A DNA stretch of 29,923 nt from a virus (taxonomy: Duplodnaviria > Caudoviricetes): IMG/VR virus record IMGVR_UViG_3300038809_000047, positions 1-29,923 of that record. One strand, written 5' to 3'. The notes under the pieces were generated by a model. It saw nothing but the letters and a program-made list of their open reading frames with translations, was not told where the DNA came from and made no database searches. Position 1 is the first letter of the stretch, and every line of letters begins with the position of its first letter. Positions 3,025 through 25,159 of the stretch are shown piece by piece. Made by a program: the position numbers and the translations under genes.

Positions 3025-3654
3025 TCATGTCGGAACCCAGACATTGAGTTTCTGGGAATTCTCAACGGCGGTGAGAATCTGCAAATTCCCTGGCACATGC
3101 AGACCGGAAATGTACTTGCCCTGCAATGGCAGTACATGGTCGACGTGATGCTTGATTCCAGTGAGCGCAGTGATGATTAGGCAGCTATCGTACAAACCAC
3201 TAATAAAAGCATGATCGTCCGGCGTCAGCCATCTTGGGGTTCTCTGGATTGTTGCGGCACGCCTTTTCGCCCCGTAAGCAGGGATCAGATGGGGGTTCTC
3301 TGTCCGCCAGTTCCGGTTGGTTTCTTTCACCTTGTCTGGGTTTTTTGCGTAGTACTCCCGGCGATTGAGCCGACGTTGATCCTTTGTGAGCTCATACCAG
3401 ATGCGATTTGTCGCTGCCTTTCGTGCTTTATTTTCCTTGTAGTATTCTCGGTTTTTTGCCAGATGTTTTTCTCTGGTTTCCTGGTAGCGTTGCGCGCTGT
3501 TCTTGTTCGAGCACTTCTTGCACTTCGACCTCAACCCAGCCTTGACAGTGCGGTCAACAGAAAAATGCGATGCGGACTTTAGCTCTCCGCACTGCTTGCA
3601 GACTTGCTCGATGACGCTCATGGCCGGGCCAAGCGTTCCTTTGTACGGGCGCAT
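3025..3654 (-). CDS. HNH endonuclease with N-terminal zinc ribbon
   Basis: CKQC...CKKC, a basic helical linker, and HHVDHVLPLQG...GLHVPGNLQILTAVENSQK. TGATG overlap with the Rz stop. Alternative start at 3621. Confidence 0.88.
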   Translation of the reverse strand: MRPYKGTLGPAMSVIEQVCKQCGELKSASHFSVDRTVKAGLRSKCKKCSNKNSAQRYQETREKHLAKNREYYKENKARKAATNRIWYELTKDQRRLNRREYYAKNPDKVKETNRNWRTENPHLIPAYGAKRRAATIQRTPRWLTPDDHAFISGLYDSCLIITALTGIKHHVDHVLPLQGKYISGLHVPGNLQILTAVENSQKLNVWVPT

Positions 3655-4166
3655 CAGTGTGCGTCCTTTACAGCAAGAATATGGTAGGACCTTTCGCAAG
3701 CCTGCCCCGCTATTCGGTTTGCATCAGCAATTGCTGCCAGATCTCCCGCTCTTTTGTCAGCGCGCTGGCGCAGGTCGGCGAGCACAGTGGTGAGATCGCG
3801 GATTGTCGCGCTTCCTGAGGCAACTCTGGACTTGAGGGCGGCGCGACTGGCAAGCAGCTTGGAGACTTCGAGCTGCAGGCTGTCAGCAGCAGACTGAGCA
3901 TCAGCAGCGTCGGTTGCAGCCATCTTGATTTTTTTTTGGGCATCGTTGCGTACCTGGTCAATGTCGCGTTGGCGTTGCTGTTCGGTCTCGCGCGCGTTCT
4001 CGCTCGCCTGCTGGGCCTTGGTGGCGATATCGGTCTTGTAGTCGGCATAGTCCGTACGCACACCGCTGAGCTGGATAGTCTGATATCCGAGCCCCACAGC
4101 CAGTGCTACGATCAACGCCATGACTGCCCACGCCCAGACGGGCACCAGCTTGAGAGCGGAAATCAT
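3654..4166 (-). CDS. Rz-like inner-membrane spanin (DUF2514-like)
   Basis: N-terminal TM helix, Ala-rich coiled coil and AGQACERSY C-terminus. Directly follows the endolysin. Confidence 0.9.
   Translation of the reverse strand: MISALKLVPVWAWAVMALIVALAVGLGYQTIQLSGVRTDYADYKTDIATKAQQASENARETEQQRQRDIDQVRNDAQKKIKMAATDAADAQSAADSLQLEVSKLLASRAALKSRVASGSATIRDLTTVLADLRQRADKRAGDLAAIADANRIAGQACERSYHILAVKDAH
3710..3943 (-). CDS. Rz1-like outer-membrane spanin lipoprotein embedded in Rz
   Basis: MPKKKSRWLQPTLLMLSLLLTA-C lipobox and a Pro/Cys-rich mature part, in an alternative frame inside Rz. ATG at 3943. Confidence 0.85.
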   Translation of the reverse strand: MPKKKSRWLQPTLLMLSLLLTACSSKSPSCLPVAPPSSPELPQEARQSAISPLCSPTCASALTKEREIWQQLLMQTE

Positions 4167-7254: not shown

Positions 7255-7928
7255 GTCGAGGCCCCTTTGCGACCGTACAGCGAGCCCCCCTCAAGTGTCA
7301 GGATGTATTCAGTTCGCTTACCCGCGTTAGGCGTTGCTGGCGCCGCGCCGCCACTTGCAATCCAGGTAATTCCGCTCGGCCAGGTTAATGCAAACGCCGT
7401 GGCCCCTTGCGTCACTCGAATCAAGATGATCATCGACTCGGTGGCGCTGAGTGTTGGCAGGTTAGAAAACGATAAGGTCGCCGCCCCGGTCAGCGTTAGA
7501 TCAAAAACGCCAGTGGTCCCGACGTTTAGTGCAAGCGCACCGGTCGCCGCCGTGGACTTCAACATTGGATCAATGGCGATCAGCTTGATCTGGGCCTGGT
7601 AAGAGACGCCCTGCTCATTCGCAAGAACGGCGAGGGCGCGCCGGGCGTTACCGACCATGCTTGGCAGGCCAGCCTGATTGTTGAGAGCTGCGGCAATTGC
7701 AGCGGCACTGGCAGCAGCACTGCTGGCCGTTTGGGCGTTGGTTGCCGAGGAGTTCGCGTACCCGCCAATGGCTGTCACCTGAGCCCCGATCCACGTCAGC
7801 GACGTGTTGATCTGCGGAACCATCGCCTGTTGCGCGGTCAGCGATGCCCCAGCCTTGGCGTCGAACACCGCCTCGGGATCGGTCGGTAATGGCGGATCTG
7901 GCAGAAGCGTGATTGAAGGAACGGCCAT
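7251..7928 (-). CDS. Putative tail fibre/adaptor protein
   Basis: Pro-rich anchor-like N-terminus, Ala-rich coil and C-terminal beta domain (VTQGATAFALTWPSGITW). Position in the tail module. Confidence 0.65.
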   Translation of the reverse strand: MAVPSITLLPDPPLPTDPEAVFDAKAGASLTAQQAMVPQINTSLTWIGAQVTAIGGYANSSATNAQTASSAAASAAAIAAALNNQAGLPSMVGNARRALAVLANEQGVSYQAQIKLIAIDPMLKSTAATGALALNVGTTGVFDLTLTGAATLSFSNLPTLSATESMIILIRVTQGATAFALTWPSGITWIASGGAAPATPNAGKRTEYILTLEGGSLYGRKGAST

Positions 7929-8842
7929 TAAGTGAGGCTCCTGACTTCAAGGGTGAATTGGGCGTCGTTGGGGGCCCGAAGGTTGGGTGCGAACCGCTCA
8001 TAGCGACCAATGATCACGGTGACGTCGAGACTTGCGCTGCCCACGTAAAGGACCGCGCTCTCGCTGACGCCAGAAAGGGTTCGCTTGATGGTTGAAAGCC
8101 GGTCTTCATCGACCACAACGTCGTAGTTGACGAAATCGCGCTTCCCGCGCGGGACGATAGTGATCTGGCCGAAGTCCCCGATCTTGACGTTGGAGTAGTT
8201 CTCCAGGCCGAACGAGGTGTCGCCGTATACCGCCGCGCCGATGTCATTGGCCCAGCCGACCACCATCATTCCGATTTCAGCGGTTCCGCCCGGCGCGTTC
8301 GCAATCACCTGAATGGTCGCGCCCGCAATTGGCGGAAGATCGAGAACAGCGAGGTTGTCCAGCGTGGTGAAGGGGCCGAAGTAATACTGATACCAGCTGC
8401 CGCCCGACTTGCTCGACATCTGAAACGTGTTGTTGTAAACCTCGACCCCGGCCGATGTCATGATGATCTGGACCGATGAGGCCCTGACTCCCACCAAGCC
8501 GATCGCGTTAACCCTCTTTGTAAGAGCGACCGTCACATCTACCAGTGTTGCGTATGAGGTAGATGTGCCTACGACCCAGTCATTGGCGATCTGCTTTTTG
8601 AACATCTTCCAGCGGTTGGTCGGGCCAAGGTCCTGCCAGACCGGAGGCTGACTGGTATCGGTCTCCGGATTCTTGCCAGTGCTGGTGCCCAGCGCCTGAT
8701 AGTTGCGGTTGTTGTAGGTGACGTACGCCCCAACTGCATAGGCTGTCGAGACGTTCCAGGCTGCGTAGTCCAGCTCTGGAACGTTACTCGTCAGCATCGC
8801 CGGGGTGATTTCCGTCGGCGGCACGATTGTCATGCGGCTCAT
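7928..8842 (-). CDS. Virion tail protein (distal-tail position) with CBM5/12-like motif
   Basis: Directly after the TMP. AWNVSTAYAVGAYVTYNNRNYQAL resembles the CBM5/12 consensus. Also contains WQDLGPTNRWKMF. Confidence 0.65.
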   Translation of the reverse strand: MSRMTIVPPTEITPAMLTSNVPELDYAAWNVSTAYAVGAYVTYNNRNYQALGTSTGKNPETDTSQPPVWQDLGPTNRWKMFKKQIANDWVVGTSTSYATLVDVTVALTKRVNAIGLVGVRASSVQIIMTSAGVEVYNNTFQMSSKSGGSWYQYYFGPFTTLDNLAVLDLPPIAGATIQVIANAPGGTAEIGMMVVGWANDIGAAVYGDTSFGLENYSNVKIGDFGQITIVPRGKRDFVNYDVVVDEDRLSTIKRTLSGVSESAVLYVGSASLDVTVIIGRYERFAPNLRAPNDAQFTLEVRSLT

Positions 8843-11800
8843 GCCACCTCCTTAGTCGAAACGGTACCCACGACTTGAACGCCCGCGTTGTTGATCTGCC
8901 GCAGATCGCGCGAGGCGCTGTCCATGTAGGTTTCAATGTTGCTGAGTCGCTTGTTGAGCTGACGAATCACCTCGGCTGCCTCCCCTGCGTCGCTCCCTGC
9001 CTGAGCGCGTTGCGGACTGGCCGCGACAACCGGGCTCGCAACATTCATCACCGCGCCGCCAGAGGCGAACTTTGGCATTTGAAGGTTGTTCATCCGGTCC
9101 AGCAGGTCTGTGCCGTAGGTATCGACGGCCGCCGCCTTCATGACGTATTCGCCATTCGAGAGACGCGCGAGGATGCTGTCGCTTGTGCCGGTGCCTGGGC
9201 CGCTGATGTAGCCGCCATTCGCATGAGCTTGGAGCGAACCATTGGCGAGCGCTGCGTTCTTGATCGCCTGCTCGAGCTGGGAGTAACTGATCGAACCATT
9301 AGCCAGTTGGCCAAGCCAGTAATCCTTGCCCGCCTGATCAGCGCCGTGCCCCAACACCGACTGGTAAACCGAATCGATCAAGGTTCCATTGTTGGCCGCG
9401 GTACCGCCTGACGCCTTGCCGGTGATGGCCGAAAGCGCGGCCACGACTGCGATGTTCATCTCCTTGACGGCCTGAGCGACGGTCTTGACCGAGTTGTCCA
9501 TACCGTTGAGCGCGTCCAGCTGCTGCTGAGCGAACTCAAGCTGGTCATCCAGTGCGTCGAGCTGACTCTGCAACGTCTTGACGGTCTGCTCGGCATTGGT
9601 CAGCTGCTTGCCGTTCAGCTTCTCCAGCTCGGCCACGACATTGGCTGTTCGGCCTTGGTCGCGGTTGAAGTCCTCAAGCGACGAGTAAAGGTCGGTGCTG
9701 TTGTTGCTGACCGTATCGAGTGCATCGCTTAGCCCATCGAAGCCAGCCAGAGACTTGCCTGCTCGTGCCTGCGCAAGCGCACTTTGCAGAGTCGCCTGAG
9801 CCTGCGCCCTGAGCATCTGCACGGCACTACCCGACTCGCCACGCAGAGACTTGAGCGCCGAGCCCAGATCATTGCTCACACCTGTCAGGTCGCTAACGCT
9901 GGTGTTTGCCGTTGCCAGCATGTCGTTGATCGACGCCTTTTGAGCATTGATCGCGCGCTCAAGGGCGCTCTGGGCCGACGTCACACTGCCCATCAATCCA
10001 TCAATGATCTTCTGCGCGGCATCTGCTGCTGCCTGCTGAGCATCCTTCGCCTTCTGATCCAAAGTGGAGTAGTAGGAGTCGGCGTTCGTGGCAAGGCCAA
10101 CCAGCGTGGCAAACATCGCTTGGCCGGCGGCGGTCGTGACGTCAATGTCTTCGACCATGTCGCGATAGGCGCTACGGGTATCCGGCAATTCAAGCCCGAA
10201 CCCTGCAAACGCTCCCTTGAGGCTCTTTGTCAGGTCGGCGAACTGCTCGTCTGCGCTGAAGAAAGCCTGGTAGTACGTGCCAACCGCCTTGTTCAACGCG
10301 TCGACTTTCTCCTTTGCGGTCGCGGTGGTCGTGTCCAGATCGGACATTGCACCAATCATGTTGAGGATCGAGTCGGACGCGGCCAGGCCTGTGTTGTCGA
10401 GCTTCAGGTTGGCGACGTTAATCAGCGACAGCGCATCGTTCACCCCGTTGAAGCGAGTGAAAATTCCTTCGATGGCCTTGATCACCTCATCAGCAGTCGT
10501 GTCCCAATCGTTCGCGAACTCAGTGAACTGGGCGCGGAAGTAATCCGGCAGCGACTTGGAACTCACGATCGCCTTCGCAAGGAAGGTGCCCATGATGTCG
10601 TCGTAGTTGTGCTGCAGAGCTTCGGCCGCGTCCGCCGCGGTGAATTGCTGATGAATGTTCAGGTCATTGGCGCCGCCGCCATCAATAGTCGCGCCAAACG
10701 TGGTGGAGTACTTGCCAGAGGTCTTGCGGACCTGAAGCATGTCGTAGGCGTAGACCTGCGTCGAAGCACCGAACGCCGTGTACAGGTCACCCAAGGTCTT
10801 CGCGAACTTGTTGACCGTCGAGTCGAGCTGAGCGTCGACACTCGTTCCGAATTTCGGCGCGTTGGTCTGCCAGCCCTGCACGACTCCCTGGGTGTTGTAC
10901 TGGCCGCCTTTGTACGTCCCTTGCGCCGAAGTGCTCAGGTCTGGGTACTTCTCACCGCTTCCGCCGAACAGTTTCCCAGCGCCGAGCGGACCCAGAACCG
11001 TGCCGATAGCAAACCCTGCCGCGGTGCCGAGCGGACCCGCGAATGAACCGATGTAAGCACCGGCAGCGCCAGCGCCCGCAGTCACCGCGCCCCCCTTCAG
11101 CCCGTAGTCCTTGAACGAGTTGAAGATCGTGTAGACACCCTGGATGTAACCCAGAGTCGCGCTGAGTGTTTGCAGGCCTGTTAATGCCGACGATTGCGCA
11201 GCAGCCGAACCGAGAGCGCCATCAAAGGCGCCCTGCCCTGCAACACCGGTACTGAATTGCGCCGCGTAGTTGGAGTAGCCCTGCGACAGTGCGGCAGAGG
11301 TTGTTTCGGAACTGAAGATTGAAGCTGCGGTAGTCGACCCAGTCTCAAATGCACTGGTGACAACAGACTTGAAGTAGTCAGCGCCATTGCTGAAGGCACC
11401 TTCCAGGCCACCTACAACGCCCTCGCCGCCATTCCAGCCAGACAATAAGGACTGGCCGAACTTGCTGCCCGCGGCAGAGACCACAGAGCTGATGTTGCTG
11501 AGCGTGCCGCCAAGACCTCCGCCAGTTCCGCCACCGAACAAAGACCCTAGCCCGCTAGCCGAACCTGCGCCGCCGGCTGAGTCGCCGCCAATGCCCAGCG
11601 CTGCAAGGATTGGAGTGACGATATAGGCCTTGGCCACAATGCGCGCCAGGTCGGCAATGATGCTGTCGGCCAGATCCTTGAAGGACAGCTTGCCTGTCGT
11701 CGCCGCATTGACGAACGCATCCTCTACGCCATGCAGAGCATCAGAGAACAGGCCTTCCGTTTGCCCTGCAACATCCTTGGTTTCGTCGATGTAGTTGGCG

Positions 11801-14499
11801 AACGCGCGCGATGCGCCATTCATCCAGTCGGAGCGAAGGGCGGCTTCGTCCTGGTAATACTTCTGCTGCTTGGCTAGACGCTCGTCCAATGCGCTCTGAA
11901 GCAGTTGGGTTTGCTCATCATATGCATTATCGCTTAGCCGTTTTAAGCGATGATCGCGGTCGAGCTGGTCAAATTTCTGCTCATACTCTTGCCGGATCTT
12001 TAGGGTTTCCTGCAGCTCCTGACGAGCGCGATCACCAAGACCGAAACCTGCCAACTGAAGATCTAGACTTTCCTGCGCGCGCTTCAGGCTGTCCTGCAAT
12101 GCCTGGGCGTAGGCATCAATTGCCTGACGCTCTTTATCCAGTCGGTCCTGCGTCTGGATCGACAGCACTTCCTGATCGGAATCCAGTTTCTTGAGCGCGT
12201 CGACCATCTTCGCTCGCGCATCGGCGATCTTCTGGTCTACCTGGATGCGCTGGGCGCTCGTGGTGCCGGACTTCGCGCTGACAGCTTCGAGGGCGGCGAT
12301 CTCGCCCTGATAGGCGGCTTCGACGTCGGTCTTTTCCTTGTCAATCAGCGCGGACTTTTGGAGTGCGTATTGCTGATCACTTATCAGGCCAGCTTTCTGC
12401 GATGCGTCTAGAACTCGGAGCGAATTCTGGTAGGTCGTTTCGAGTGACTTGAGCGCGTTCTCGGCGGCGTTGAAACCTGTCAAATCAACAGCAGGCGCAG
12501 CTACCTTCTCGGCCTTGTAGCGGTCGTTGATGGCCTTAAGCGAAACATCGTATTCCTTATTGATCTGCGCGACATTGACGCCCTCGCCCTTGAGGGCATC
12601 GGCGCGCTTGCGGTCAAGTTCAGCAATATCAAGTTTCTTCTTTGCCTCCTTTTCCAGGCCGGCCAAGTAGGACGTATGGAGCGAGTCGACGGCCTTAATG
12701 CTCGCCTGCTCTCGCTCTTGAGCATTACCCTGAGCCTTGGCAATTGCGCTTTGACTTTCTAGCTGGTCTTGCAGAAAACCGCGCTGGATATTCCAGCTTT
12801 TCAGCTTGTCAGCATCGTAGCCTGCACTTTCCTTGTAGCGTTTCAGTTGCTCGTCAGATAGGCCTATCTGCTTGCTCGCCATATCCTCGATAGCCTTCAT
12901 TGAGGCGATCTGGCTATCCAGTTGGTCGATTTGGCTTTGGACTGTCTTCTGGCGGCCGAACTCCTTCAGGCCGTCGATTGCGCCTAACGTCATGGTCTTT
13001 ACGGCTTTCCAAGCCGTTTCCACGTAGCCGAGATCATCTACTACCTGGCCGGCCCGAGTTTTTACTGTGGCGGCGTAGGTATCGGTCAGAAGCTTAACTG
13101 CATCCTGCTCTTTGCCCTGCTCCTTCAGCGATACAATCTGTTCGTACACAGAGGCAGTGAGAAAGTGATACTGGTCGTTGAGCGTTTTAGCGGCAGAGAC
13201 CGGATCATCCGCAATCTTGACGAACTCGGCGATCGTGTCCTGTACGGCTTTGCCGGTCGCCTGATTCATGGCGACAGCCGCAACAGCAATCTCGTCGAAG
13301 CTTTCCCCGGCGATTTTGCCGGTAGCCGCGAGTTCGGTCAGTGCTTCCGCTGCCAAGCCAACGGTTCCGTTGGACTTGCCTATCGATTCTGCGAGTGCGT
13401 TGAGCTGCCCCGCGCTCAAGCCCGCACTTCCGCCAGTCAGCGTCAGTGCCTTCTGATACTCGGTGAACTCTTTCGAACCCTGATAGGCACCATACGCAAT
13501 AGCTGCAAGTGCAACGCCAGCAACTGTCAGCGGGTTGATCAGGCCAAGAACGTAGCCCCCGAGGGCGCTGGCAGCCGATCCGATGCCTCCAAAGGAGTCC
13601 TTTATCTGTCCGCCCTGCTGAAGCAGCACAGTTAAAGGCGCCTGCCCCCCCTGAAGCGAGGTGAAGATATCGGTGAACTGAGCCGGCAATGTGCGAAGTG
13701 CCGCAGCATTCTGCTTGGCGCTTACTCCTGTCCTGTTCAGGTCACCCTGAAATCTGGTCAGGCCTTCACGTGTTTTATCAATGGATGCGGTGTATTTAGC
13801 AAAATCTTCTTTCGAGAGCAGTCCTAGCTCTTTCGACCTGCCTAGCAGATCCTGTTGGGCGTCGAGCCTTTTCAGGGCTGCAACTGCCGGATCAATCTGA
13901 CCGATCAGCTTTGCCAGTGCATTAGCGTCTTCTGCTGTTGCGGATGCTGCCTTTTGGGTTGAACTGGTGGCCTTATCTTGAGCCGTCGCCGATTCAGCGG
14001 CGGCTCGTGCGGCCCGGTTCTGCGCGGCCAGCTGGTCGAGCTGCTTGCGTGTCGCCTCCCCGGCTGCGGCTGCCGTGGTGTCGAGCGCCCCGGATAGTTG
14101 CTGCTGACCCTTCGCGGCATCGATGGCTGCCGTGGCAAGCGCCAACATCCGCGCTTTGGCTTGATCTGCAGTTTCGGCAACTTTCGCCTCAGCTGTAGCA
14201 GTCTTTTCGGCCGCGGTGCTTGCGGACGTGAACGCTGCCGACGCCTGGTTTACCGACTGAGCCAGCTTGGCCATCAGTTGCGCGGTGCTGTCCTGGCGGG
14301 CATTGAGCTGCTGAAGCTCTTTGACGATTTGGCTGGTGTCGCTGGAGATGCCGGACACTGCCTTCTGCCAGGCGCTTTCAACGCGCTTGGCAGAGTCCTC
14401 CGCGCCCTTTCCGCTATCAACGAGCTTGTCCAGATCGTCAGCAGCCTGTACCGCTGACTGGGAGTTGATCTCAAATCCGAGCTGGGCAATCGTTGTCAT
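8839..14499 (-). CDS. Tail tape measure protein (1886 aa), lambda-like domains plus long insertion with DUF4214-like motif
   Basis: LPAQFTDIFTSLQGGQAPLTVLLQQGGQIKD, DWMNGASRAFANY...GKLSFKDLADSIIADL and GGYISGPGTGTSDSILARLSNGEYV motifs. Ala-rich coils. Confidence 0.95.
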   Translation of the reverse strand: MTTIAQLGFEINSQSAVQAADDLDKLVDSGKGAEDSAKRVESAWQKAVSGISSDTSQIVKELQQLNARQDSTAQLMAKLAQSVNQASAAFTSASTAAEKTATAEAKVAETADQAKARMLALATAAIDAAKGQQQLSGALDTTAAAAGEATRKQLDQLAAQNRAARAAAESATAQDKATSSTQKAASATAEDANALAKLIGQIDPAVAALKRLDAQQDLLGRSKELGLLSKEDFAKYTASIDKTREGLTRFQGDLNRTGVSAKQNAAALRTLPAQFTDIFTSLQGGQAPLTVLLQQGGQIKDSFGGIGSAASALGGYVLGLINPLTVAGVALAAIAYGAYQGSKEFTEYQKALTLTGGSAGLSAGQLNALAESIGKSNGTVGLAAEALTELAATGKIAGESFDEIAVAAVAMNQATGKAVQDTIAEFVKIADDPVSAAKTLNDQYHFLTASVYEQIVSLKEQGKEQDAVKLLTDTYAATVKTRAGQVVDDLGYVETAWKAVKTMTLGAIDGLKEFGRQKTVQSQIDQLDSQIASMKAIEDMASKQIGLSDEQLKRYKESAGYDADKLKSWNIQRGFLQDQLESQSAIAKAQGNAQEREQASIKAVDSLHTSYLAGLEKEAKKKLDIAELDRKRADALKGEGVNVAQINKEYDVSLKAINDRYKAEKVAAPAVDLTGFNAAENALKSLETTYQNSLRVLDASQKAGLISDQQYALQKSALIDKEKTDVEAAYQGEIAALEAVSAKSGTTSAQRIQVDQKIADARAKMVDALKKLDSDQEVLSIQTQDRLDKERQAIDAYAQALQDSLKRAQESLDLQLAGFGLGDRARQELQETLKIRQEYEQKFDQLDRDHRLKRLSDNAYDEQTQLLQSALDERLAKQQKYYQDEAALRSDWMNGASRAFANYIDETKDVAGQTEGLFSDALHGVEDAFVNAATTGKLSFKDLADSIIADLARIVAKAYIVTPILAALGIGGDSAGGAGSASGLGSLFGGGTGGGLGGTLSNISSVVSAAGSKFGQSLLSGWNGGEGVVGGLEGAFSNGADYFKSVVTSAFETGSTTAASIFSSETTSAALSQGYSNYAAQFSTGVAGQGAFDGALGSAAAQSSALTGLQTLSATLGYIQGVYTIFNSFKDYGLKGGAVTAGAGAAGAYIGSFAGPLGTAAGFAIGTVLGPLGAGKLFGGSGEKYPDLSTSAQGTYKGGQYNTQGVVQGWQTNAPKFGTSVDAQLDSTVNKFAKTLGDLYTAFGASTQVYAYDMLQVRKTSGKYSTTFGATIDGGGANDLNIHQQFTAADAAEALQHNYDDIMGTFLAKAIVSSKSLPDYFRAQFTEFANDWDTTADEVIKAIEGIFTRFNGVNDALSLINVANLKLDNTGLAASDSILNMIGAMSDLDTTTATAKEKVDALNKAVGTYYQAFFSADEQFADLTKSLKGAFAGFGLELPDTRSAYRDMVEDIDVTTAAGQAMFATLVGLATNADSYYSTLDQKAKDAQQAAADAAQKIIDGLMGSVTSAQSALERAINAQKASINDMLATANTSVSDLTGVSNDLGSALKSLRGESGSAVQMLRAQAQATLQSALAQARAGKSLAGFDGLSDALDTVSNNSTDLYSSLEDFNRDQGRTANVVAELEKLNGKQLTNAEQTVKTLQSQLDALDDQLEFAQQQLDALNGMDNSVKTVAQAVKEMNIAVVAALSAITGKASGGTAANNGTLIDSVYQSVLGHGADQAGKDYWLGQLANGSISYSQLEQAIKNAALANGSLQAHANGGYISGPGTGTSDSILARLSNGEYVMKAAAVDTYGTDLLDRMNNLQMPKFASGGAVMNVASPVVAASPQRAQAGSDAGEAAEVIRQLNKRLSNIETYMDSASRDLRQINNAGVQVVGTVSTKEVA

Positions 14500-14517
14500 G
14501 GGTTTATTCCGGGCATT

Positions 14518-14539
14518 AAAAAACCCGCCGAAGCGGGTT
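14518..14539 (-). terminator. Intrinsic terminator after the moron
   Basis: Minus strand reads AACCCGC-TTCG-GCGGG-TTTTTT. Confidence 0.85.
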
Positions 14540-14573
14540 CATAGTGTTTGTTGATGGTGCTGATAAGGCGACT

Positions 14574-15551
14574 TCAGCTGTCCATGTAAAATCTGAAGCC
14601 GTATTCCAGCCCGTCCGTTGCTGCTGCTCCAGACCCTGGAGTCGGAGCGCCTGAGCCAGTTAACTGAATGACTACCTGCTCTCCAGCAAAGACTTGGGCA
14701 GCCCCTTGGTAGCCTATCCAGGCCTCTGATTGCTGATACTGCTCTGCAGAATTGTCCATGATGTGCGTGGTGCCGGCGATTACCGACAGATCAATTTTTC
14801 TGTCGCCAAACTGGGCCAGCTTCAAAATTCCGGTCTTTTGAACGGTTAGGGTGAAGTAGTCAATGTTGTCTGTGTGGGTCGGGCTGTAACGTAACCCGAG
14901 CACTCCATCTACGGATGTGTTTAGCGCAATCTGAGTTGGCGAAAGGATGCTATCGCTCGCATCGGCTAGCTTGTCGTTGTAAGTGGACGGTCCAGGCGGC
15001 AAAGACGCGATGTAAGTATCTGTTGCTGTCTTGGCAGAAGCCAGGCTCGACGGATCTGAGTTAACGCTGTCTACAGCCGCCTTAGAATGCGAAGTAAAGT
15101 CATCCACACCCCAGTTCGCGTCTTTGGTTTTGGTAGTGAAATACTGTGCACTTTCGACCTTGTTAGCCAGCACCTTGGCGTCAGTCAGCGTTTGAGGGTC
15201 TGTTGACTTCGGATCTTTCGCAGCATTCGTGATCGCGCTCACAAAAAAATCGGCACCAATCTTCCCAGAATCAAGTTCCGATATCCAATACGCTTTGCCA
15301 GCTGCATCTGGAGATCGCTCAAGGAAGTTCTGGTAGACCTTATCTACCAGCGCGCCGCTGGAAAGACCACCGTAGATGCTCCAGTACTCAGGCTGATTAG
15401 GGGAAGCAAACGATGCCCTTGTGTCTTCCAGCGTGCGAGCCCCACCCTCAATAGCGTCGGCCCAGTATTTCAGCCCTGCATAGTCCGCAGCTCGCCCCAA
15501 AATACCGATGTACAACTCCTGAATACCTGCCTCTGTTTGCGCTCGGCTCAT
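14574..15551 (-). CDS. Moron: DUF4214-like repeat protein with C-terminal beta (PPC-like) domain
   Basis: IQELYIGILGRAADYAGLKYW and VDKVYQNFLERSPDAAGKAYW repeats, then ...DNIDYFTLTVQKTG. More AT-rich, has its own terminator, and lies between the chaperone and TMP genes. Confidence 0.8.
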   Translation of the reverse strand: MSRAQTEAGIQELYIGILGRAADYAGLKYWADAIEGGARTLEDTRASFASPNQPEYWSIYGGLSSGALVDKVYQNFLERSPDAAGKAYWISELDSGKIGADFFVSAITNAAKDPKSTDPQTLTDAKVLANKVESAQYFTTKTKDANWGVDDFTSHSKAAVDSVNSDPSSLASAKTATDTYIASLPPGPSTYNDKLADASDSILSPTQIALNTSVDGVLGLRYSPTHTDNIDYFTLTVQKTGILKLAQFGDRKIDLSVIAGTTHIMDNSAEQYQQSEAWIGYQGAAQVFAGEQVVIQLTGSGAPTPGSGAAATDGLEYGFRFYMDS

Positions 15552-15584
15552 GCCATCCCCATCCGTGTCAGTTTTGGTACAAAG

Positions 15585-15620
15585 CGAATCTATAGCACAA
15601 CGCTATGCCCAAATAAACAG
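15585..15620 (-). promoter_or_regulatory. Possible moron promoter
   Basis: TGTGCTATAGATT (extended -10-like) about 40 bp upstream of the moron ATG. No convincing -35. Confidence 0.35.
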
Positions 15621-15629
15621 AGTTGCGAT

Positions 15630-15949
15630 CTACGAATCCCGGTTATACGCCATCGTTCGCAGGGCTTCACGCTCCATCACCCGGAGGTCGGCGAATATCG
15701 CGGCGCGAACCTTGCGTTTCTTGAGTCCCGCCATTTCTAGCACGACCGGTAGGGCCTGGTAGTCCAACCCAGTAGCTCCGGCCATCCCCATGCGCCACTG
15801 GGTGCCCATCGACTCAAAGACGGCAAATGACTGAGCATTGGTCGCCCACAGCTCTATCGAATCATCCACGTCCCCCACCTCCAGCCCGAACAATGCGAGC
15901 TGCTCGGCGGAGGTGTCAGGGGTATAGAGCGCGCGGACAACCTCGATCA
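15630..15949 (-). CDS. Tail assembly chaperone, -1 frameshift extension (gpT-like, DUF1799-like)
   Basis: TQWRMGMAGATGLDYQAL and DLRVMEREAL motifs. The frame is open from the slippery site (LIEVVRALYTPDTSAEQLALFGLE). Confidence 0.85.
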
Positions 15950-16330
15950 GTTTCCCTCGCGGGCCTTGTGATAAGCGGTTTTGTATGCGGTCAGGATCGC
16001 ATCAGGCACCGCCGAGGCACTGCGCACCAGCGCACGCAGGTTCTCGTCGTTCAGCTCATCGTCAAAACCCCAGCCCTTGACGATCATCTTCAGCTGGTTG
16101 AATTCGAAGTCGGCCGCCTTGGTGGTGATGTCGCGCACGGTGGCATCGCCCTTCTTGATGACTTCAGTCAGGTCTTTACCGTGGCTGATCTCGCAGTCGC
16201 CGAATTCGGCAAGCTGATCCCGATCGAGATAGGCGAAGGTGAACGGCACCTTGACCGGCTTCTCGCCGATGCGCGGAATCTCCACGTCAGTGGTGAAAGT
16301 CGGCTTTTGCTGGATGGAAATTTTGGCCAC
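15947..16330 (-). CDS. Tail assembly chaperone (gpG-like)
   Basis: IVKGWGFDDELNDENLRAL and a REGN end. Follows the tail tube gene. Confidence 0.9.
   Translation of the reverse strand: MAKISIQQKPTFTTDVEIPRIGEKPVKVPFTFAYLDRDQLAEFGDCEISHGKDLTEVIKKGDATVRDITTKAADFEFNQLKMIVKGWGFDDELNDENLRALVRSASAVPDAILTAYKTAYHKAREGN
15950..15956 (-). other. -1 programmed ribosomal frameshift site G GGA AAC
   Basis: In-frame X XXY YYZ heptamer immediately before the chaperone stop. The -1 frame joins the downstream ORF. Confidence 0.88.
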
Positions 16331-16387: not shown

Positions 16388-17044
16388 TTACGCGGCGTTG
16401 TAACGAACTGGACGGCCAGACAGCGCGAAGTTCACGGTGCGCGTCATGAGAGCATTACGCTCCAGTGTCGGGGTGTCGGTGATGGTGCAGAAGCCTGGGT
16501 ACAGGATCTTGTCGCCGTTGGGCAGGTTCAGACGCAGGATGGTCTGAGTTTTGTTGTCGGTGTAGCCCTCAGCGACAGTTACGTATGCAGCAGTAGGCTG
16601 ATCCTCAACGGTCAGAGCCATGCTCATCGGATTGCGGTTGGTCGGGAACTGACGGTCGTCGTCCTCTGCCAGATAGCCGACGGTCAGGAACTGCTGCTCC
16701 CCGCCGGTGAAGGATGTGCCGGTGATCTTGGTGATCTCGACCCAGCTGGTTACGCTTTGGAAGCCGCCCGCGCCGCCGTCAGGAGTGTAGAAGGTTTCGT
16801 TCACGGTGCTGATATTTTCCAGCGAAAAACTGCCAGTTTCAGCATCTGCCACACGAACAGCACGACCGTCCAGCTTGCCCCAGTTCGACTGCAGCAGGAC
16901 GATATCGCCATCCGCCAAACCGTTCGCAGCTGCGGTGGCTACCGCAGGGTTAGCGTTGCTGATGTCGCTGATCACCTTCGAAACGGCGAAGGCTACGGCC
17001 AGTTGCATGGTGGCGCCGTTGGGCAGCGCAATACGAGTTGCCAT
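16388..17044 (-). CDS. Major tail tube protein
   Basis: LPNGATM, ISNANPAVA, GGEQQF and LPNGDKILYPG motifs. Sits upstream of the chaperones. Confidence 0.9.
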   Translation of the reverse strand: MATRIALPNGATMQLAVAFAVSKVISDISNANPAVATAAANGLADGDIVLLQSNWGKLDGRAVRVADAETGSFSLENISTVNETFYTPDGGAGGFQSVTSWVEITKITGTSFTGGEQQFLTVGYLAEDDDRQFPTNRNPMSMALTVEDQPTAAYVTVAEGYTDNKTQTILRLNLPNGDKILYPGFCTITDTPTLERNALMTRTVNFALSGRPVRYNAA

Positions 17045-17110: not shown

Positions 17111-17566
17111 TCAGGCAGGGCTGCGCGCAGGCGTCCCTTTTACTGCGATGCTGAGGCTCAGCACCATCAGCTGGTTGCGGTCGAGAACGGGTATCTGGCT
17201 GCCGCTGGCGAAGCCGGTGTAGGTGATGCTTGCCCCGCTGGGCAGCTTGTATTTCCAGCCAAGCGGCTGACGGGTATCGCGGCCATTGGCGATCAGCGCC
17301 TGATGATCTGAGCCCGGGTCATCTTGGAAAACCATCTGGACGTCGATTGGGTTGCGACCGTTTGGCTTGCGCACATCTTCGTACTCCCCGAGCGGGGTGT
17401 AGGCCAGAAAGCGCTCTTCTCCTCCGGACTGGGTCAGGCTCGTGATCTTCTTCACCTCGACCCAGGTGTCAGAGTCTGCCGCCGGCGGCGTCTGGTTTGC
17501 CAGATCGACATCGGCGCTCACCCATACGGTCGTGCCGTTGGGTAGCGGTACTCGCTGAGACATCAC
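17111..17566 (-). CDS. Second, shorter tail tube-like protein
   Basis: Aligns by eye with the 218-aa tail tube protein (LPNG, WVEVKKIT, GGEERFL, RNP, LPSG, PVLDRNQLM). Confidence 0.82.
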   Translation of the reverse strand: MMSQRVPLPNGTTVWVSADVDLANQTPPAADSDTWVEVKKITSLTQSGGEERFLAYTPLGEYEDVRKPNGRNPIDVQMVFQDDPGSDHQALIANGRDTRQPLGWKYKLPSGASITYTGFASGSQIPVLDRNQLMVLSLSIAVKGTPARSPA

Positions 17567-22265: not shown

Positions 22266-23381
22266 TTAGGCCTTGGCTGGAAGGTGAGCGGACTGCATGT
22301 CTGCGATCATCTGCAGGCGCGCTTTGTCGGAGTCGTCGCCACCGGTGCGGCTGTCCAGACCCTGGAAGTGACTGCGGACCGGGTCGGTCTTGCCGTTCTT
22401 GGCGGCGTCTTCCGCGAGGATGTCGAAGCGAGCCTTGATGTAGGCTCCCGGTTGACCTGCAATCGCGGCATCACCGAATTTCGCCACCACGACCGCCTTG
22501 CGGATTTCGTCCGCAGATTTGCCGGTGTAGTCCGCGTCGTGCAGAGTTTTGGCGATGGTCACCAGGTCGGTGCGATCTTTCACCAGCGCGTCGACCTGAG
22601 CGTCGGTCAGGATCTTGGTCTTGGCGTCGTCCAGCGCAGCTTTGATCTTGACGATCTCGTCGTCTTTGCCAGCCAGCGCAACAGCGTGAGCGTCGGTCAG
22701 GGTTTTGACGTTAACCCCGGCGTCGGCCAGCTGCTTGGTCAGCTTGTCGATTGCCTGGGCACCTTGGTCGGTGGTTTGTACGGACAGGCCATCAACAATG
22801 ACCGTGCGAAGTGAATCAGCCATGTCATGGCCTCCTGGTTGGGTTGGTTGCTTGTTGTCGCCGATGCGGAGGTGTTCGCCGCCTCGTGCCCTGTCCACTA
22901 GGGCCAGGTGGTTCATGGTCATCGGGCCGAGGATGGCGTCGTAGGCTTCGCCCTTGTCGGTCACCCCGTCTTGGAAGGTCAGCTCGGCGCCGTAGCCCAT
23001 GGAGAGCTGACGCTTGCCCGACTCGTAGTCAGCAATCGCCTTGGCATCCATCAGCACCAGTGGCACGCGGACGAATTCGCCGTCGCGCATCACTTCGCTG
23101 CCGGTCTGGCCAATGGCAACGTCCTTCCAGTTCTTGGAGTTGACGCCTTCGCCGCCCGGGTGGTCGTTGGTCATGGGTCGGTATGCGTAGGAGCGCATCG
23201 CGGTGTCAGCGAACACCGAGGACTCGGGCCGGTACACGCGAACGATCGGCATGTCAGGCTTGCCCACTTCTGAGCCGAGGTATTCCTGAATGCCGGTGCG
23301 GGCCACTTTTGCGTCGGCCACAAGGTAGCCGTCCGCCGTCCGCCGCGGATTAGACGCGGTCACGGAATCGGTGAAGATCAT
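22266..23381 (-). CDS. DUF2213-like prohead protease/scaffold
   Basis: ARTGIQEY, PMTNDHP, QLSMGY and NHLALVDRARGG motifs, followed by a coiled-coil C-terminal half. Confidence 0.9.
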   Translation of the reverse strand: MIFTDSVTASNPRRTADGYLVADAKVARTGIQEYLGSEVGKPDMPIVRVYRPESSVFADTAMRSYAYRPMTNDHPGGEGVNSKNWKDVAIGQTGSEVMRDGEFVRVPLVLMDAKAIADYESGKRQLSMGYGAELTFQDGVTDKGEAYDAILGPMTMNHLALVDRARGGEHLRIGDNKQPTQPGGHDMADSLRTVIVDGLSVQTTDQGAQAIDKLTKQLADAGVNVKTLTDAHAVALAGKDDEIVKIKAALDDAKTKILTDAQVDALVKDRTDLVTIAKTLHDADYTGKSADEIRKAVVVAKFGDAAIAGQPGAYIKARFDILAEDAAKNGKTDPVRSHFQGLDSRTGGDDSDKARLQMIADMQSAHLPAKA

Positions 23382-25159
23382 TGCGATACCTCTTCGAAGA
23401 TCTCAGGACCCAGCTCGATCGCGCCTCGGTATGGCTCAACCGCAGCCAGATCGACGCTTCCGGGCTCGTAGGTGAAGGTGATATGCGGCTGATACTCAGG
23501 CCAGTCCCACGACGCGCCGGCCTCGATGATCGAGACATGCCGCCAGGCCAGCTCTGAGCTGTTGAACAGCAGCACGACAGCACCTTCGCCGAACTTGTCG
23601 ATCAGCCTTGCCCCGCCGGGTGCGATCTTGAGGAGGCCCTTGCTGTCGCCAGACCAGGACTCGCCAACCTTCATCCAGTCGACCAGCTCGGTGCTGTAGG
23701 CGATGGTGACGTGCAGATCTTCGGCAGGCAGCGTCGAGGTGAAGCCCTGAGACTTCGCCCAAGCGACGATCTCGCTGCCGTTGGTTACCTTGCGGGACAC
23801 GTACAGCGTGCGCGGAGCGGCGTCGTTAATGACCTTGGTGGACGGAACCACACCGTCTACGCCAGCCTCCTCATCTTCCACGTCAGCAGTGCCGAACTCT
23901 TCGACCGCCGCCTCAAGACCAGGCAGAACGCTTTGCTCAACGAGTAGATTGGTGGCCGCCTGACCGAGCGCATCGCCGTCCCACAGCTTGGTATCGGCCA
24001 GAACCTTGATGGTGTCGGCCGTGGTCTTGCCGATGTCTGCCCGCTCCTTCGCCGTCGGCTGCCACAGGGGCGCCCATGCGTAGTGAATCTCTTCGGGGCG
24101 AGCACCCAGCGCCGACCGAATCAGGCACTCATCGAGCACGCTCATGGCTGGCTTGATGACCAGCCCCTGCTGTGCGGACACGTTGTCGTAGTAATTGCGA
24201 GTGTTCTCTTCGCCGTTGGCACCAAGGCCGGTCGAGGACTGCCCAAACATGCGGGTGCCGGGGATATCGAATGCCCCGGCTACGCCCTGCTCGGTCTTGG
24301 CGATCACCTCTGGCAGCGTGCTGAAGCTCGCAGACTTGGAGCTGTGCGTCTCCAAGCCGTCGAGGATCAGTGTTCCGTTGATGCCCTTTGCCGTTGCTGC
24401 CAGGCGAAGACGTTCGAGCAAACTGCGCTCGTAGTTCTTGTCCTGAAGGCTGGACATCAGGTTGGGGATGTTGATGACGTCGATCTTTGCCTCATAAACC
24501 AGGCTGACCACGTTCGCCATCGTCTCGTCATAATGCTTTACGGCGGGCATAGCACTCAGCAGCACCGAATCGCCCCAGCCGAACTGCAGGCCGTCGGCTA
24601 TTTCAGGGTCTGGATGCTCAGCACCGATGAAGATCACCAAGCGCGACGGGTGAATCTCGACCGTCGATCCTGGCAGGCGGTATGCCTTTGGCTTGCCGAA
24701 GCGCAGGCTTTGCGGATCCTGCTCGATCGCGGTCGGGGTCAGCTGTCGACGAGTCATCACAGTCAGGTACTTGATGCCGCCCTTGCCGATCCTTTCAGGA
24801 TTCAGCTCTGATGCTGTATCACGCTCACCCGTGCCGATGAAAACTGCAGCACCACCGAAGAGCCGAGCCTTGATCTGCGCCTCCAGTATCTTACTGGCGA
24901 CGTTCAAGCGGGTTTCTTCAGCCTCGATCAGCTGGATCTCTTTCTTATCGGCCTGCCAGTTGCGCCAGTTGCGGCATGCATCCACCGCCGGGATGTTCAC
25001 GCCCTTGCGCGCAGCCCATGAGCCGCGATAGGCGTTCAGCAACTCAAGGTCGGTCATCACCGGGACGGCATAGTGCGAGTGCGAGGCCTTGTCACGGCCA
25101 GTACCCAGACCTGCCACCAGGTTCTGGAGGCTGTCTTTGACGAAGGTGAATGCGCTCAT
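23378..25159 (-). CDS. Portal protein (DUF1073-like) fused to a C-terminal Acb1-like 2H phosphoesterase
   Basis: ARLFGGA and DIPGTRMFGQSSTGL...NYYD portal motifs, then an acidic linker, then TLYVSR...DLHVTIAYS...YQPHITFTY (two HxT motifs). Confidence 0.9.
   Translation of the reverse strand: MSAFTFVKDSLQNLVAGLGTGRDKASHSHYAVPVMTDLELLNAYRGSWAARKGVNIPAVDACRNWRNWQADKKEIQLIEAEETRLNVASKILEAQIKARLFGGAAVFIGTGERDTASELNPERIGKGGIKYLTVMTRRQLTPTAIEQDPQSLRFGKPKAYRLPGSTVEIHPSRLVIFIGAEHPDPEIADGLQFGWGDSVLLSAMPAVKHYDETMANVVSLVYEAKIDVINIPNLMSSLQDKNYERSLLERLRLAATAKGINGTLILDGLETHSSKSASFSTLPEVIAKTEQGVAGAFDIPGTRMFGQSSTGLGANGEENTRNYYDNVSAQQGLVIKPAMSVLDECLIRSALGARPEEIHYAWAPLWQPTAKERADIGKTTADTIKVLADTKLWDGDALGQAATNLLVEQSVLPGLEAAVEEFGTADVEDEEAGVDGVVPSTKVINDAAPRTLYVSRKVTNGSEIVAWAKSQGFTSTLPAEDLHVTIAYSTELVDWMKVGESWSGDSKGLLKIAPGGARLIDKFGEGAVVLLFNSSELAWRHVSIIEAGASWDWPEYQPHITFTYEPGSVDLAAVEPYRGAIELGPEIFEEVSQ

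Follow-up and report, generated by a model that had tools for sequence, protein, structure and literature searches.

Bacterial proteins bearing the DUF4214 repeat (PF13946) have been described as likely held at the cell surface by it (PMC12780176, PMC11970703). The closest described system is Psh (PP_1794), from Pseudomonas putida KT2440. This RTX-DUF4214 protein relies on a type I secretion system (T1SS) for its export and is reported to protect from sixteen phages of six genera, every one of the sixteen tried being blocked (10.64898/2026.09.02.748959). Similarly, the N-terminal domain of Caulobacter RsaA binds O-antigen (PMC6978808). Among phages, HK97 encodes the superinfection exclusion protein gp15 between its chaperone and tape measure protein (TMP) genes (PMC3594210, PMC10883804); gp15 is escaped by hybrids with the tail tube and TMP genes of HK022, and Ltp targets a TMP (PMC10883804). 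The main text of the Psh preprint mentions neither ‘prophage’ nor ‘tape measure’ (10.64898/2026.09.02.748959), and a search of the open-access literature found no paper on DUF4214 (PF13946) in a TMP. Here we analyse a 29,923-nucleotide stretch (the window), positions 1 to 29,923 of the IMG/VR virus record IMGVR_UViG_3300038809_000047, which holds the late half of a temperate siphophage of Pseudomonas, encoded on the minus strand, and in which the TMP and an accessory gene beside it, a moron, both carry DUF4214. What this adds is a genome-level association of this tail type with host DUF4214 proteins. The first-pass annotation, made from the letters of the window, had read the shared domain as a matched decoy pair; its observation is confirmed and its interpretation partly supported, while the matched-decoy reading is not supported.

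The two proteins and their parts are encoded as follows.

14574–15551, minus strand: moron, 325 aa, a DUF4214 anchor-type domain plus a PPC-like beta-sandwich (PF13946; AlphaFold2 model).
14997–15551, minus strand: helical domain of the moron, residues 1–185, with two three-helix DUF4214 repeats at about 3–48 and 65–111 (AlphaFold2; alignment to host and cargo proteins).
14577–14993, minus strand: C-terminal beta-sandwich of the moron, residues 187–325, with a PPC / collagenase collagen-binding-domain fold (fold search).
8839–14499, minus strand: TMP, 1886 aa, lambda-like to about residue 1100 (PF06791, PF09718; phrog_24 over residues 1–1099), with a long extension after that.
9250–9396, minus strand: the one three-helix DUF4214 unit in the TMP; about 137 residues separate its end from the C-terminus.

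Both open reading frames (ORFs) and all three peptides quoted in the first-pass annotation are present in the sequence, and the HMM search it had called for places both proteins above the curated PF13946 cut-off of 23.2 bits, the moron at 61.8 bits over two stretches (E 6e-17) and the TMP at 28.2 bits over residues 1702–1741 (E 1.9e-6). Compared directly, the two are identical at 21 of 48 positions (E 3e-8), and the TMP-family profile matches the moron-family profile with a probability of 97.4 (E 1e-11, 53 columns). The AlphaFold2 model of the moron has a mean predicted local distance difference test score (pLDDT) of 86.6, and in the P0037 model the TMP unit forms helices at 168–183, 189–201 and 206–220 with pLDDT 83–87, the whole-model mean being 58. 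The helix pattern in both models, together with the profile match, indicates that the TMP segment is a predicted three-helix unit as in the moron repeats, as the first-pass annotation had expected. Searched by fold, the TMP model matched only generic helical structures, all of them below Z 8. The moron sandwich aligned to 1nqd_A (Z 12.8, root-mean-square deviation 2.4, 107 aligned) and to 5sv5_A (Z 10.9), and all nine of the longer proteins that match this sandwich also carry DUF4214.

The moron resembles Psh in its DUF4214 repeats, its occurrence in Pseudomonas, its relatives beside T1SS and O-antigen genes and a proposed masking of receptors, whereas Psh has RTX repeats, a C-terminal DUF4214 region and an adjacent T1SS, and the moron has N-terminal repeats, a PPC-like domain and a location in a prophage (10.64898/2026.09.02.748959). 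No T1SS genes were found among the 39 window ORFs scanned, such genes being present beside moron relatives. The moron thus falls outside the Psh system in its defined form and would, by analogy, work like Psh or like an RsaA-anchored protein, if at all. The likeness to RsaA is indirect and lies in an all-helical N-terminal anchor: PF19198 (RsaA_NTD) is matched by 3 of 20 aligned moron-type domains (best E 4e-5). Unlike RsaA, the moron itself is unmatched by PF19198, is only 325 aa long and has no lattice-forming beta-helix, and RsaA was not among the matches listed in whole-moron fold searches, which are dominated by the C-terminal domain, or of solved-structure sequence searches. HK97 gp15 shares the position between chaperone and TMP genes, the host derivation and the lower GC, but is a small inner-membrane protein, whereas the moron is soluble, acidic and two-domain, with no homology seen (PMC3594210, PMC10883804); the parallel drawn in the first-pass annotation therefore holds for the slot and fails for the membrane segment. 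The moron repeats are also weakly like the phycobilisome linker repeat (ApcE/LCM; 3ohw_A, Z 7.2, root-mean-square deviation 4.9, 109 aligned; ApcE, E 0.007), a cyanobacterial protein–protein scaffold, and by this analogy the DUF4214 repeat could also bind protein. Some TMPs carry accessory envelope-acting domains, for example peptidoglycan hydrolases; the TMP described here likewise holds a module related to the host envelope, in this case a non-enzymatic coat-anchor repeat.

Nineteen other full-length relatives of the moron were found at 50–81% identity, the closest (P0002–P0009) at 63–81% and mostly on contigs shorter than 10 kb. In genomes, one at 59% belongs to a phage-remnant region, close to SRAP and umuD-like genes. 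Another, full-length at 56%, is chromosomal, and its locus also contains gmd, sapC, an efflux gene of the outer-membrane type and three further DUF4214 genes. A 52% relative of the N-terminal domain is immediately upstream of a T1SS operon, further N-domain relatives adjoin wzm/wzt, and none of six genome loci of moron relatives adjoins a TMP. Elsewhere, moron-type domains bear peptidase, lyase, RTX or long passenger regions, as would be expected of an anchor. Leads from the ESM Atlas comprise an RsaA_NTD cluster (score 0.92) and a cluster of DUF4214–polysaccharide ABC ATPase fusions. A PHROG profile search assigned the moron to no family, and of 50,697 phage records just one matched it, weakly. 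Neither the moron nor its alignment matched a locus among viral contigs, and a metagenome scan returned four N-domain relatives only. As the first-pass annotation had noticed, the moron is more AT-rich than its surroundings (GC 0.527; GC at third codon positions, GC3, 0.555 versus 0.68–0.82 in seven structural genes), although the fibre gene is equally low in GC3 (0.526). Judged by these sequence comparisons, the moron is host-derived, a DUF4214 anchor joined to a PPC-like sandwich, and its domain has the surface-protein origin proposed for it, while some bacterial surface-coat proteins are probably anchored by the DUF4214 helical unit. The best viral fold match to the moron is a DUF4214 protein of EBPR siphovirus 2 (JF412297.1 gp15; L296:3915-5198), annotated as a protease and encoded among small early genes.

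Export is the weakest step in any account of the moron at the cell surface. The protein has no hydrophobic stretch (best 19-residue mean 0.97), no membrane segment and, as already remarked in the first-pass annotation, no signal peptide; it also has no Cys, no GGxGxD motif and no PF00353 match, and its pI is 4.5, a set of features that fits a T1SS substrate on general grounds. SapC is part of the S-layer locus of Campylobacter fetus, and SapC genes (PF07277) occur within pseudomonad DUF4214 loci (L002:3-809, L290:3789-4580). The wzm/wzt–DUF4214 locus of genome G163 is on a 116-kb, small replicon-sized contig (L286, G163:C1), and several DUF4214 genes are also found on Pseudomonas plasmids (H62, H63, H66, H70), which raises the possibility of a mobile coat locus.

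The DUF4214 unit is a family-wide feature of related TMPs. Across 48 loci with this TMP end (35 from IMG/VR and 13 from genomes; 42 clusters at 95%), the unit was present in 46, and 33 of the 35 virus records passed the PF13946 cut-off. One candidate from the IMG/VR scan was dropped from this set as not being a TMP: a 726-aa protein with six DUF4214 stretches on a viral contig (L042:1183-3363). Among representatives at 50% identity, 100 of 109 comparable TMP ends carried the unit (69 with one, 31 with two and nine with none), a share biased upward because the query profile included the unit. The TMP end was also matched, without DUF4214, in Dinoroseobacter phage R5C, and in Salicola phage CGphi29 the unit stays below threshold (19.2 bits). 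A DUF4214 gene upstream of the TMP was found in none of the 44 related loci with at least 1.5 kb upstream in view. When the second repeat of the moron is compared with 33 TMP units, its own TMP ranks eighth, bacterial proteins rank higher, and third-position DNA identity between the moron repeat and its own TMP unit is 43%; an origin of the moron in a recent duplication from the TMP was considered and rejected. Given this distribution and this ranking, the unit is a long-standing trait of the TMP family, and the moron came recently. A complex prediction for the moron N-terminal domain and the TMP unit scored 0.00 in two runs without folded controls, which is evidence neither way.

DUF4214 genes do accompany these TMPs at another position. 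A separate DUF4214 cargo gene downstream of the fibres was found in 7 of the 48 loci (5/13 genome and 2/35 IMG/VR loci) and in none of 78 other lambda-like TMP loci (p 0.0009, the controls being unmatched for host and for length in view), so the co-occurrence of cargo and TMP anticipated in the first-pass annotation is seen further downstream but not in the slot. Genes near the prophages in G091 (one) and G163 (two) were not counted as cargo, neighbouring prophages being a possible source. The cargo proteins have varied passenger domains, including M10/M12-type peptidases and RTX, and one cargo gene (L018) is flanked by lysin and integrase. Two cargo metallopeptidases with C-terminal DUF4214 repeats (L071:12642-13865, L077:12502-13788) are encoded on the opposite strand, with fibre genes on one side and lysis genes on the other.

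The position of the moron is itself a site of exchange, a slot between the chaperone genes (PF08748, DUF1799) and the TMP with the following borders.

15630–16330, minus strand: tail assembly chaperone genes, PF08748 at 15947–16330 and DUF1799 at 15630–15893, forming the upstream border of the slot.
15552–15629, minus strand: leader of the moron with a TAGATT-like hexamer that recurs before slot genes, a promoter candidate only.
14520–14539, minus strand: hairpin like an intrinsic terminator (UUCG loop, U run) closing the slot (-13.1 kcal/mol, z -1.9).

In a related 50-kb phage contig, 1588 other letters stand in place of the moron (joint 14539–15742), and in the two closest phages, at 97–98% in the TMP C-terminus, the slot genes are unrelated to it. 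With its low GC3, the unrelated slot genes in its nearest relatives and the 1588-letter replacement, the gene at 14574–15551 is a true moron: accessory, of atypical composition and missing from close relatives. The hairpin, taken in the first-pass annotation as the moron's own terminator, is real but is retained in three related loci (L007, L008, L009), each with other slot genes. Its motif occurs in at least 119 viral stretches, and none of the 80 with flanks carries DUF4214; the hairpin is generic and part of the slot, not of the moron. The promoter suggested there was not confirmed, a sigma-70 scan of the minus strand having found none. In L008 (97% at the TMP end) the slot is filled by a superinfection immunity gene (PF14373) that also encodes a SHOCT domain (L008:4962-5357), so the slot is able to hold exclusion-type genes, as had been proposed.

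The association with host genomes was examined in one sample of 401 Pseudomonas genomes (the genus of G001), searched four ways; genome completeness is not given in this survey, and misses are to be read as ‘not found’. The TMP end was matched in 21 of the 401, comprising 11 strong matches (13 prophages), nine through a generic C-terminal motif only and one fragment (G153), while PF13946 was matched in 28. DUF4214 matches outside the prophage were present in all 11 strong carriers versus 17 of the 390 other genomes (with genomes treated as independent, Fisher p 2e-14, and 3e-13 when the centre genome G001 is left out). The gene following the TMP provides a marker of this tail type that does not depend on the unit.

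7928–8842, minus strand: 304-aa gene after the TMP with a CBM5/12-like carbohydrate-binding module (CBM; PF02839, 26.4 bits; phrog_6278), for which its position suggests a distal-tail role.

A profile of this gene, without the unit, recovered the same 11 genomes, G219 and a broken copy in G351. G219 has a 1393-aa TMP without DUF4214 and no DUF4214 match in its genome; similarly, G523, among 26 further genomes, has the 304-aa gene, no unit in the preceding 1.5 kb and no DUF4214 match. In a gyrB tree of 85 genomes (all 28 DUF4214 positives and 57 of 373 negatives), the carriers fall in three clades, and G163 and G136, each with two such prophages, are two of the three DUF4214 positives in a 47-row clade.

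Contexts of the host DUF4214 genes were read for 6 of the 11 carriers, the other five (G048, G091, G150, G197, G253) resting on matches on other contigs. The gene in G136 is adjoined by T1SS, gmd and wzm genes, and that in G163 is within a wzm/wzt locus; G148 and G222 have a Psh-like RTX-DUF4214 gene adjoining a T1SS, G161 has SapC and DUF4214 genes, and G001 has a DUF4214 cluster. Among three genomes compared, the coat-positive G001 is closest to the window in the dusA fragment (87% identity), ahead of G197 (79%) and G148 (76%); the window carries no host DNA past this fragment. The finding of tails with the unit only in strains encoding putative DUF4214 coats suggests that the unit may be an adaptation to entry into coated cells, and not one half of a matched decoy.

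Several points weigh against this interpretation. Seven of the 11 carriers are in one 12-row clade, and with kinship removed there are 8–9 independent pairs, of which 3–5 go in the same direction and none in the opposite (p 0.06–0.25); a stratified test gives p 1.4e-4 with clades picked post hoc, after the tree had been seen. The unpublished G153 has an 84-residue TMP-type piece ending before the unit and no DUF4214 match. The association could not be replicated in the genus of G002, where the tail gene was found in 0 of 67 genomes and DUF4214 in nine, and it may reflect the whole tail module (fibres and CBM gene) tracking a glycan, with the unit as a passenger. The coat and T1SS of the window's own host are outside the record. 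In the TMP, the Arg conserved in host repeats is His in the window and unmatched in 18 of 46 TMP units, so the TMP unit may no longer bind the ligand of the host repeats, and there is one repeat in the TMP versus two in host domains. Finally, the moron has no RTX repeats, unlike Psh, and the O-antigen binding of Psh is a Boltz-2 model, not a measurement (10.64898/2026.09.02.748959).

With these points in view, we propose, with moderate confidence, that the TMP unit adapts the tail to hosts coated with DUF4214 proteins and that the moron adds to the coat. Some Pseudomonas strains carry a locus with T1SS, glycan synthesis and Wzm/Wzt export genes and at least one DUF4214 protein, and these proteins would probably form a coat held by O-antigen, in the way known for RsaA and proposed for Psh. 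The phage group would live in such coated hosts and would have acquired the anchor unit twice. In the first acquisition, long ago, one or two repeats would have become fixed near the TMP C-terminus; upon tail opening, the unit may bind either the glycan ligand of the coat or the repeats of the coat proteins, and so tether the TMP or open a path through the coat. In the second, repeated and recent, entire host-type DUF4214 genes, including the moron, would have been taken up as cargo. The lysogen would then make the moron and send it out through the T1SS of the host, and the protein would be anchored through its N-terminal domain, displaying the PPC-like domain, adding to the coat and perhaps masking receptors broadly rather than in a TMP-specific manner. 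A third party, the host DUF4214 coat, accounts for the shared domain better than a moron–TMP pair does. More tentatively, the TMP could hold a counter-measure to shielding of the Psh or S-layer type, in which the tail's copy of the anchor repeat binds or displaces the coat, the phages specialise on shielded cells and prophage coat proteins such as the moron strengthen the shield against competitors; we regard this as possible but doubtful.

Somewhat unlikely, in our judgement, is that the phages recognise a glycan co-inherited with the DUF4214 locus and have simply picked up DUF4214 DNA, the TMP unit now serving as a helical spacer or in assembly, and the moron being surface cargo for adhesion or display with no anti-phage role. 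The unit travels with the whole tail module, and the association cannot separate the two; the varied passengers of the cargo proteins, the frequent loss of the conserved Arg and the nine related TMP ends without a unit are all consistent with such carriage. However, the Tyr, Gly and Trp of the unit are invariant across 32 TMPs at positions matching the host repeats, the unit is duplicated in 31 of the 109 TMP ends, and both unit-less loci of this tail type, in G219 and G523, are in DUF4214-negative genomes, which argues against mere carriage.

The moron as a dedicated superinfection exclusion protein that binds the incoming TMP unit or occupies its specific ligand, thereby blocking phages with this kind of tail, as the first-pass annotation proposed, is improbable. 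It is favoured by the slot position, as for HK97 gp15, with the HK022 tail hybrids that escape gp15 and the TMP targeting of Ltp (PMC10883804), and by the PF14373 gene in the L008 slot; moreover, competition with the TMP unit would follow incidentally if a coat protein occupied the same ligand. In contrast, no DUF4214 gene precedes the TMP in the 44 related loci, the two closest phages have unrelated slot genes, the moron shows no special likeness to its own TMP, its relatives are in non-TMP contexts in all six genome loci, and it has neither membrane segment nor signal peptide. Least probable by far is a late role of the moron in virion decoration, or in tail assembly through repeat–repeat contact with the TMP, for although the moron shares the strand of the tail operon in which it lies and PPC-like sandwiches resemble accessory binding modules, it is missing from the closest phages, is swapped for other DNA, has low GC3 and is all but absent from phage records and PHROG families.

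On the minus strand, the window encodes in order a terminase, portal, capsid, two tail-tube paralogues, chaperones, the moron and the TMP, followed by the CBM-bearing gene, fibres, lysin and an integrase adjoining dusA (integrase and dusA at 1–2228). Another locus, L033, is arranged alike at this end (DNA identity 80% for the integrase and 85% for dusA). The TMP extension past the lambda-like part spans about 790 residues (8839–11200), residues 1150–1530 had no solved-structure match, and domain and PHROG scans of the window showed no recognisable hub or central-fibre gene after the TMP; the extension may form part of the tip, replacing these genes. The tandem tail-tube paralogues (16388–17044 and 17111–17566, minus strand; 218 and 151 aa, both PF08813, about 33% identical) are retained as a pair in L007, L009, L035, L074 and L077. 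The portal gene (23378–25159, minus strand) is fused to a C-terminal Acb1-like domain (PF06381 at 39–385; PF23474 at 450–592, E 6e-41), and because phrog_146 covers its entire length this fusion is probably family-wide. An Endonuclease VII / HNH-like gene (3025–3699, minus strand) has a spanin on one side and the integrase on the other.

A temperate phage group seen only where the host encodes DUF4214 proteins, including two genomes that have Psh-type loci, is a candidate for passing such coats, and the TMP unit offers a precise site at which coat passage can be tested. The finding bears on two open questions, namely what ligand DUF4214 binds and how a non-contractile tail crosses the protein coat of a Gram-negative cell, and, if true, it would be relevant to phage-proofed production strains.

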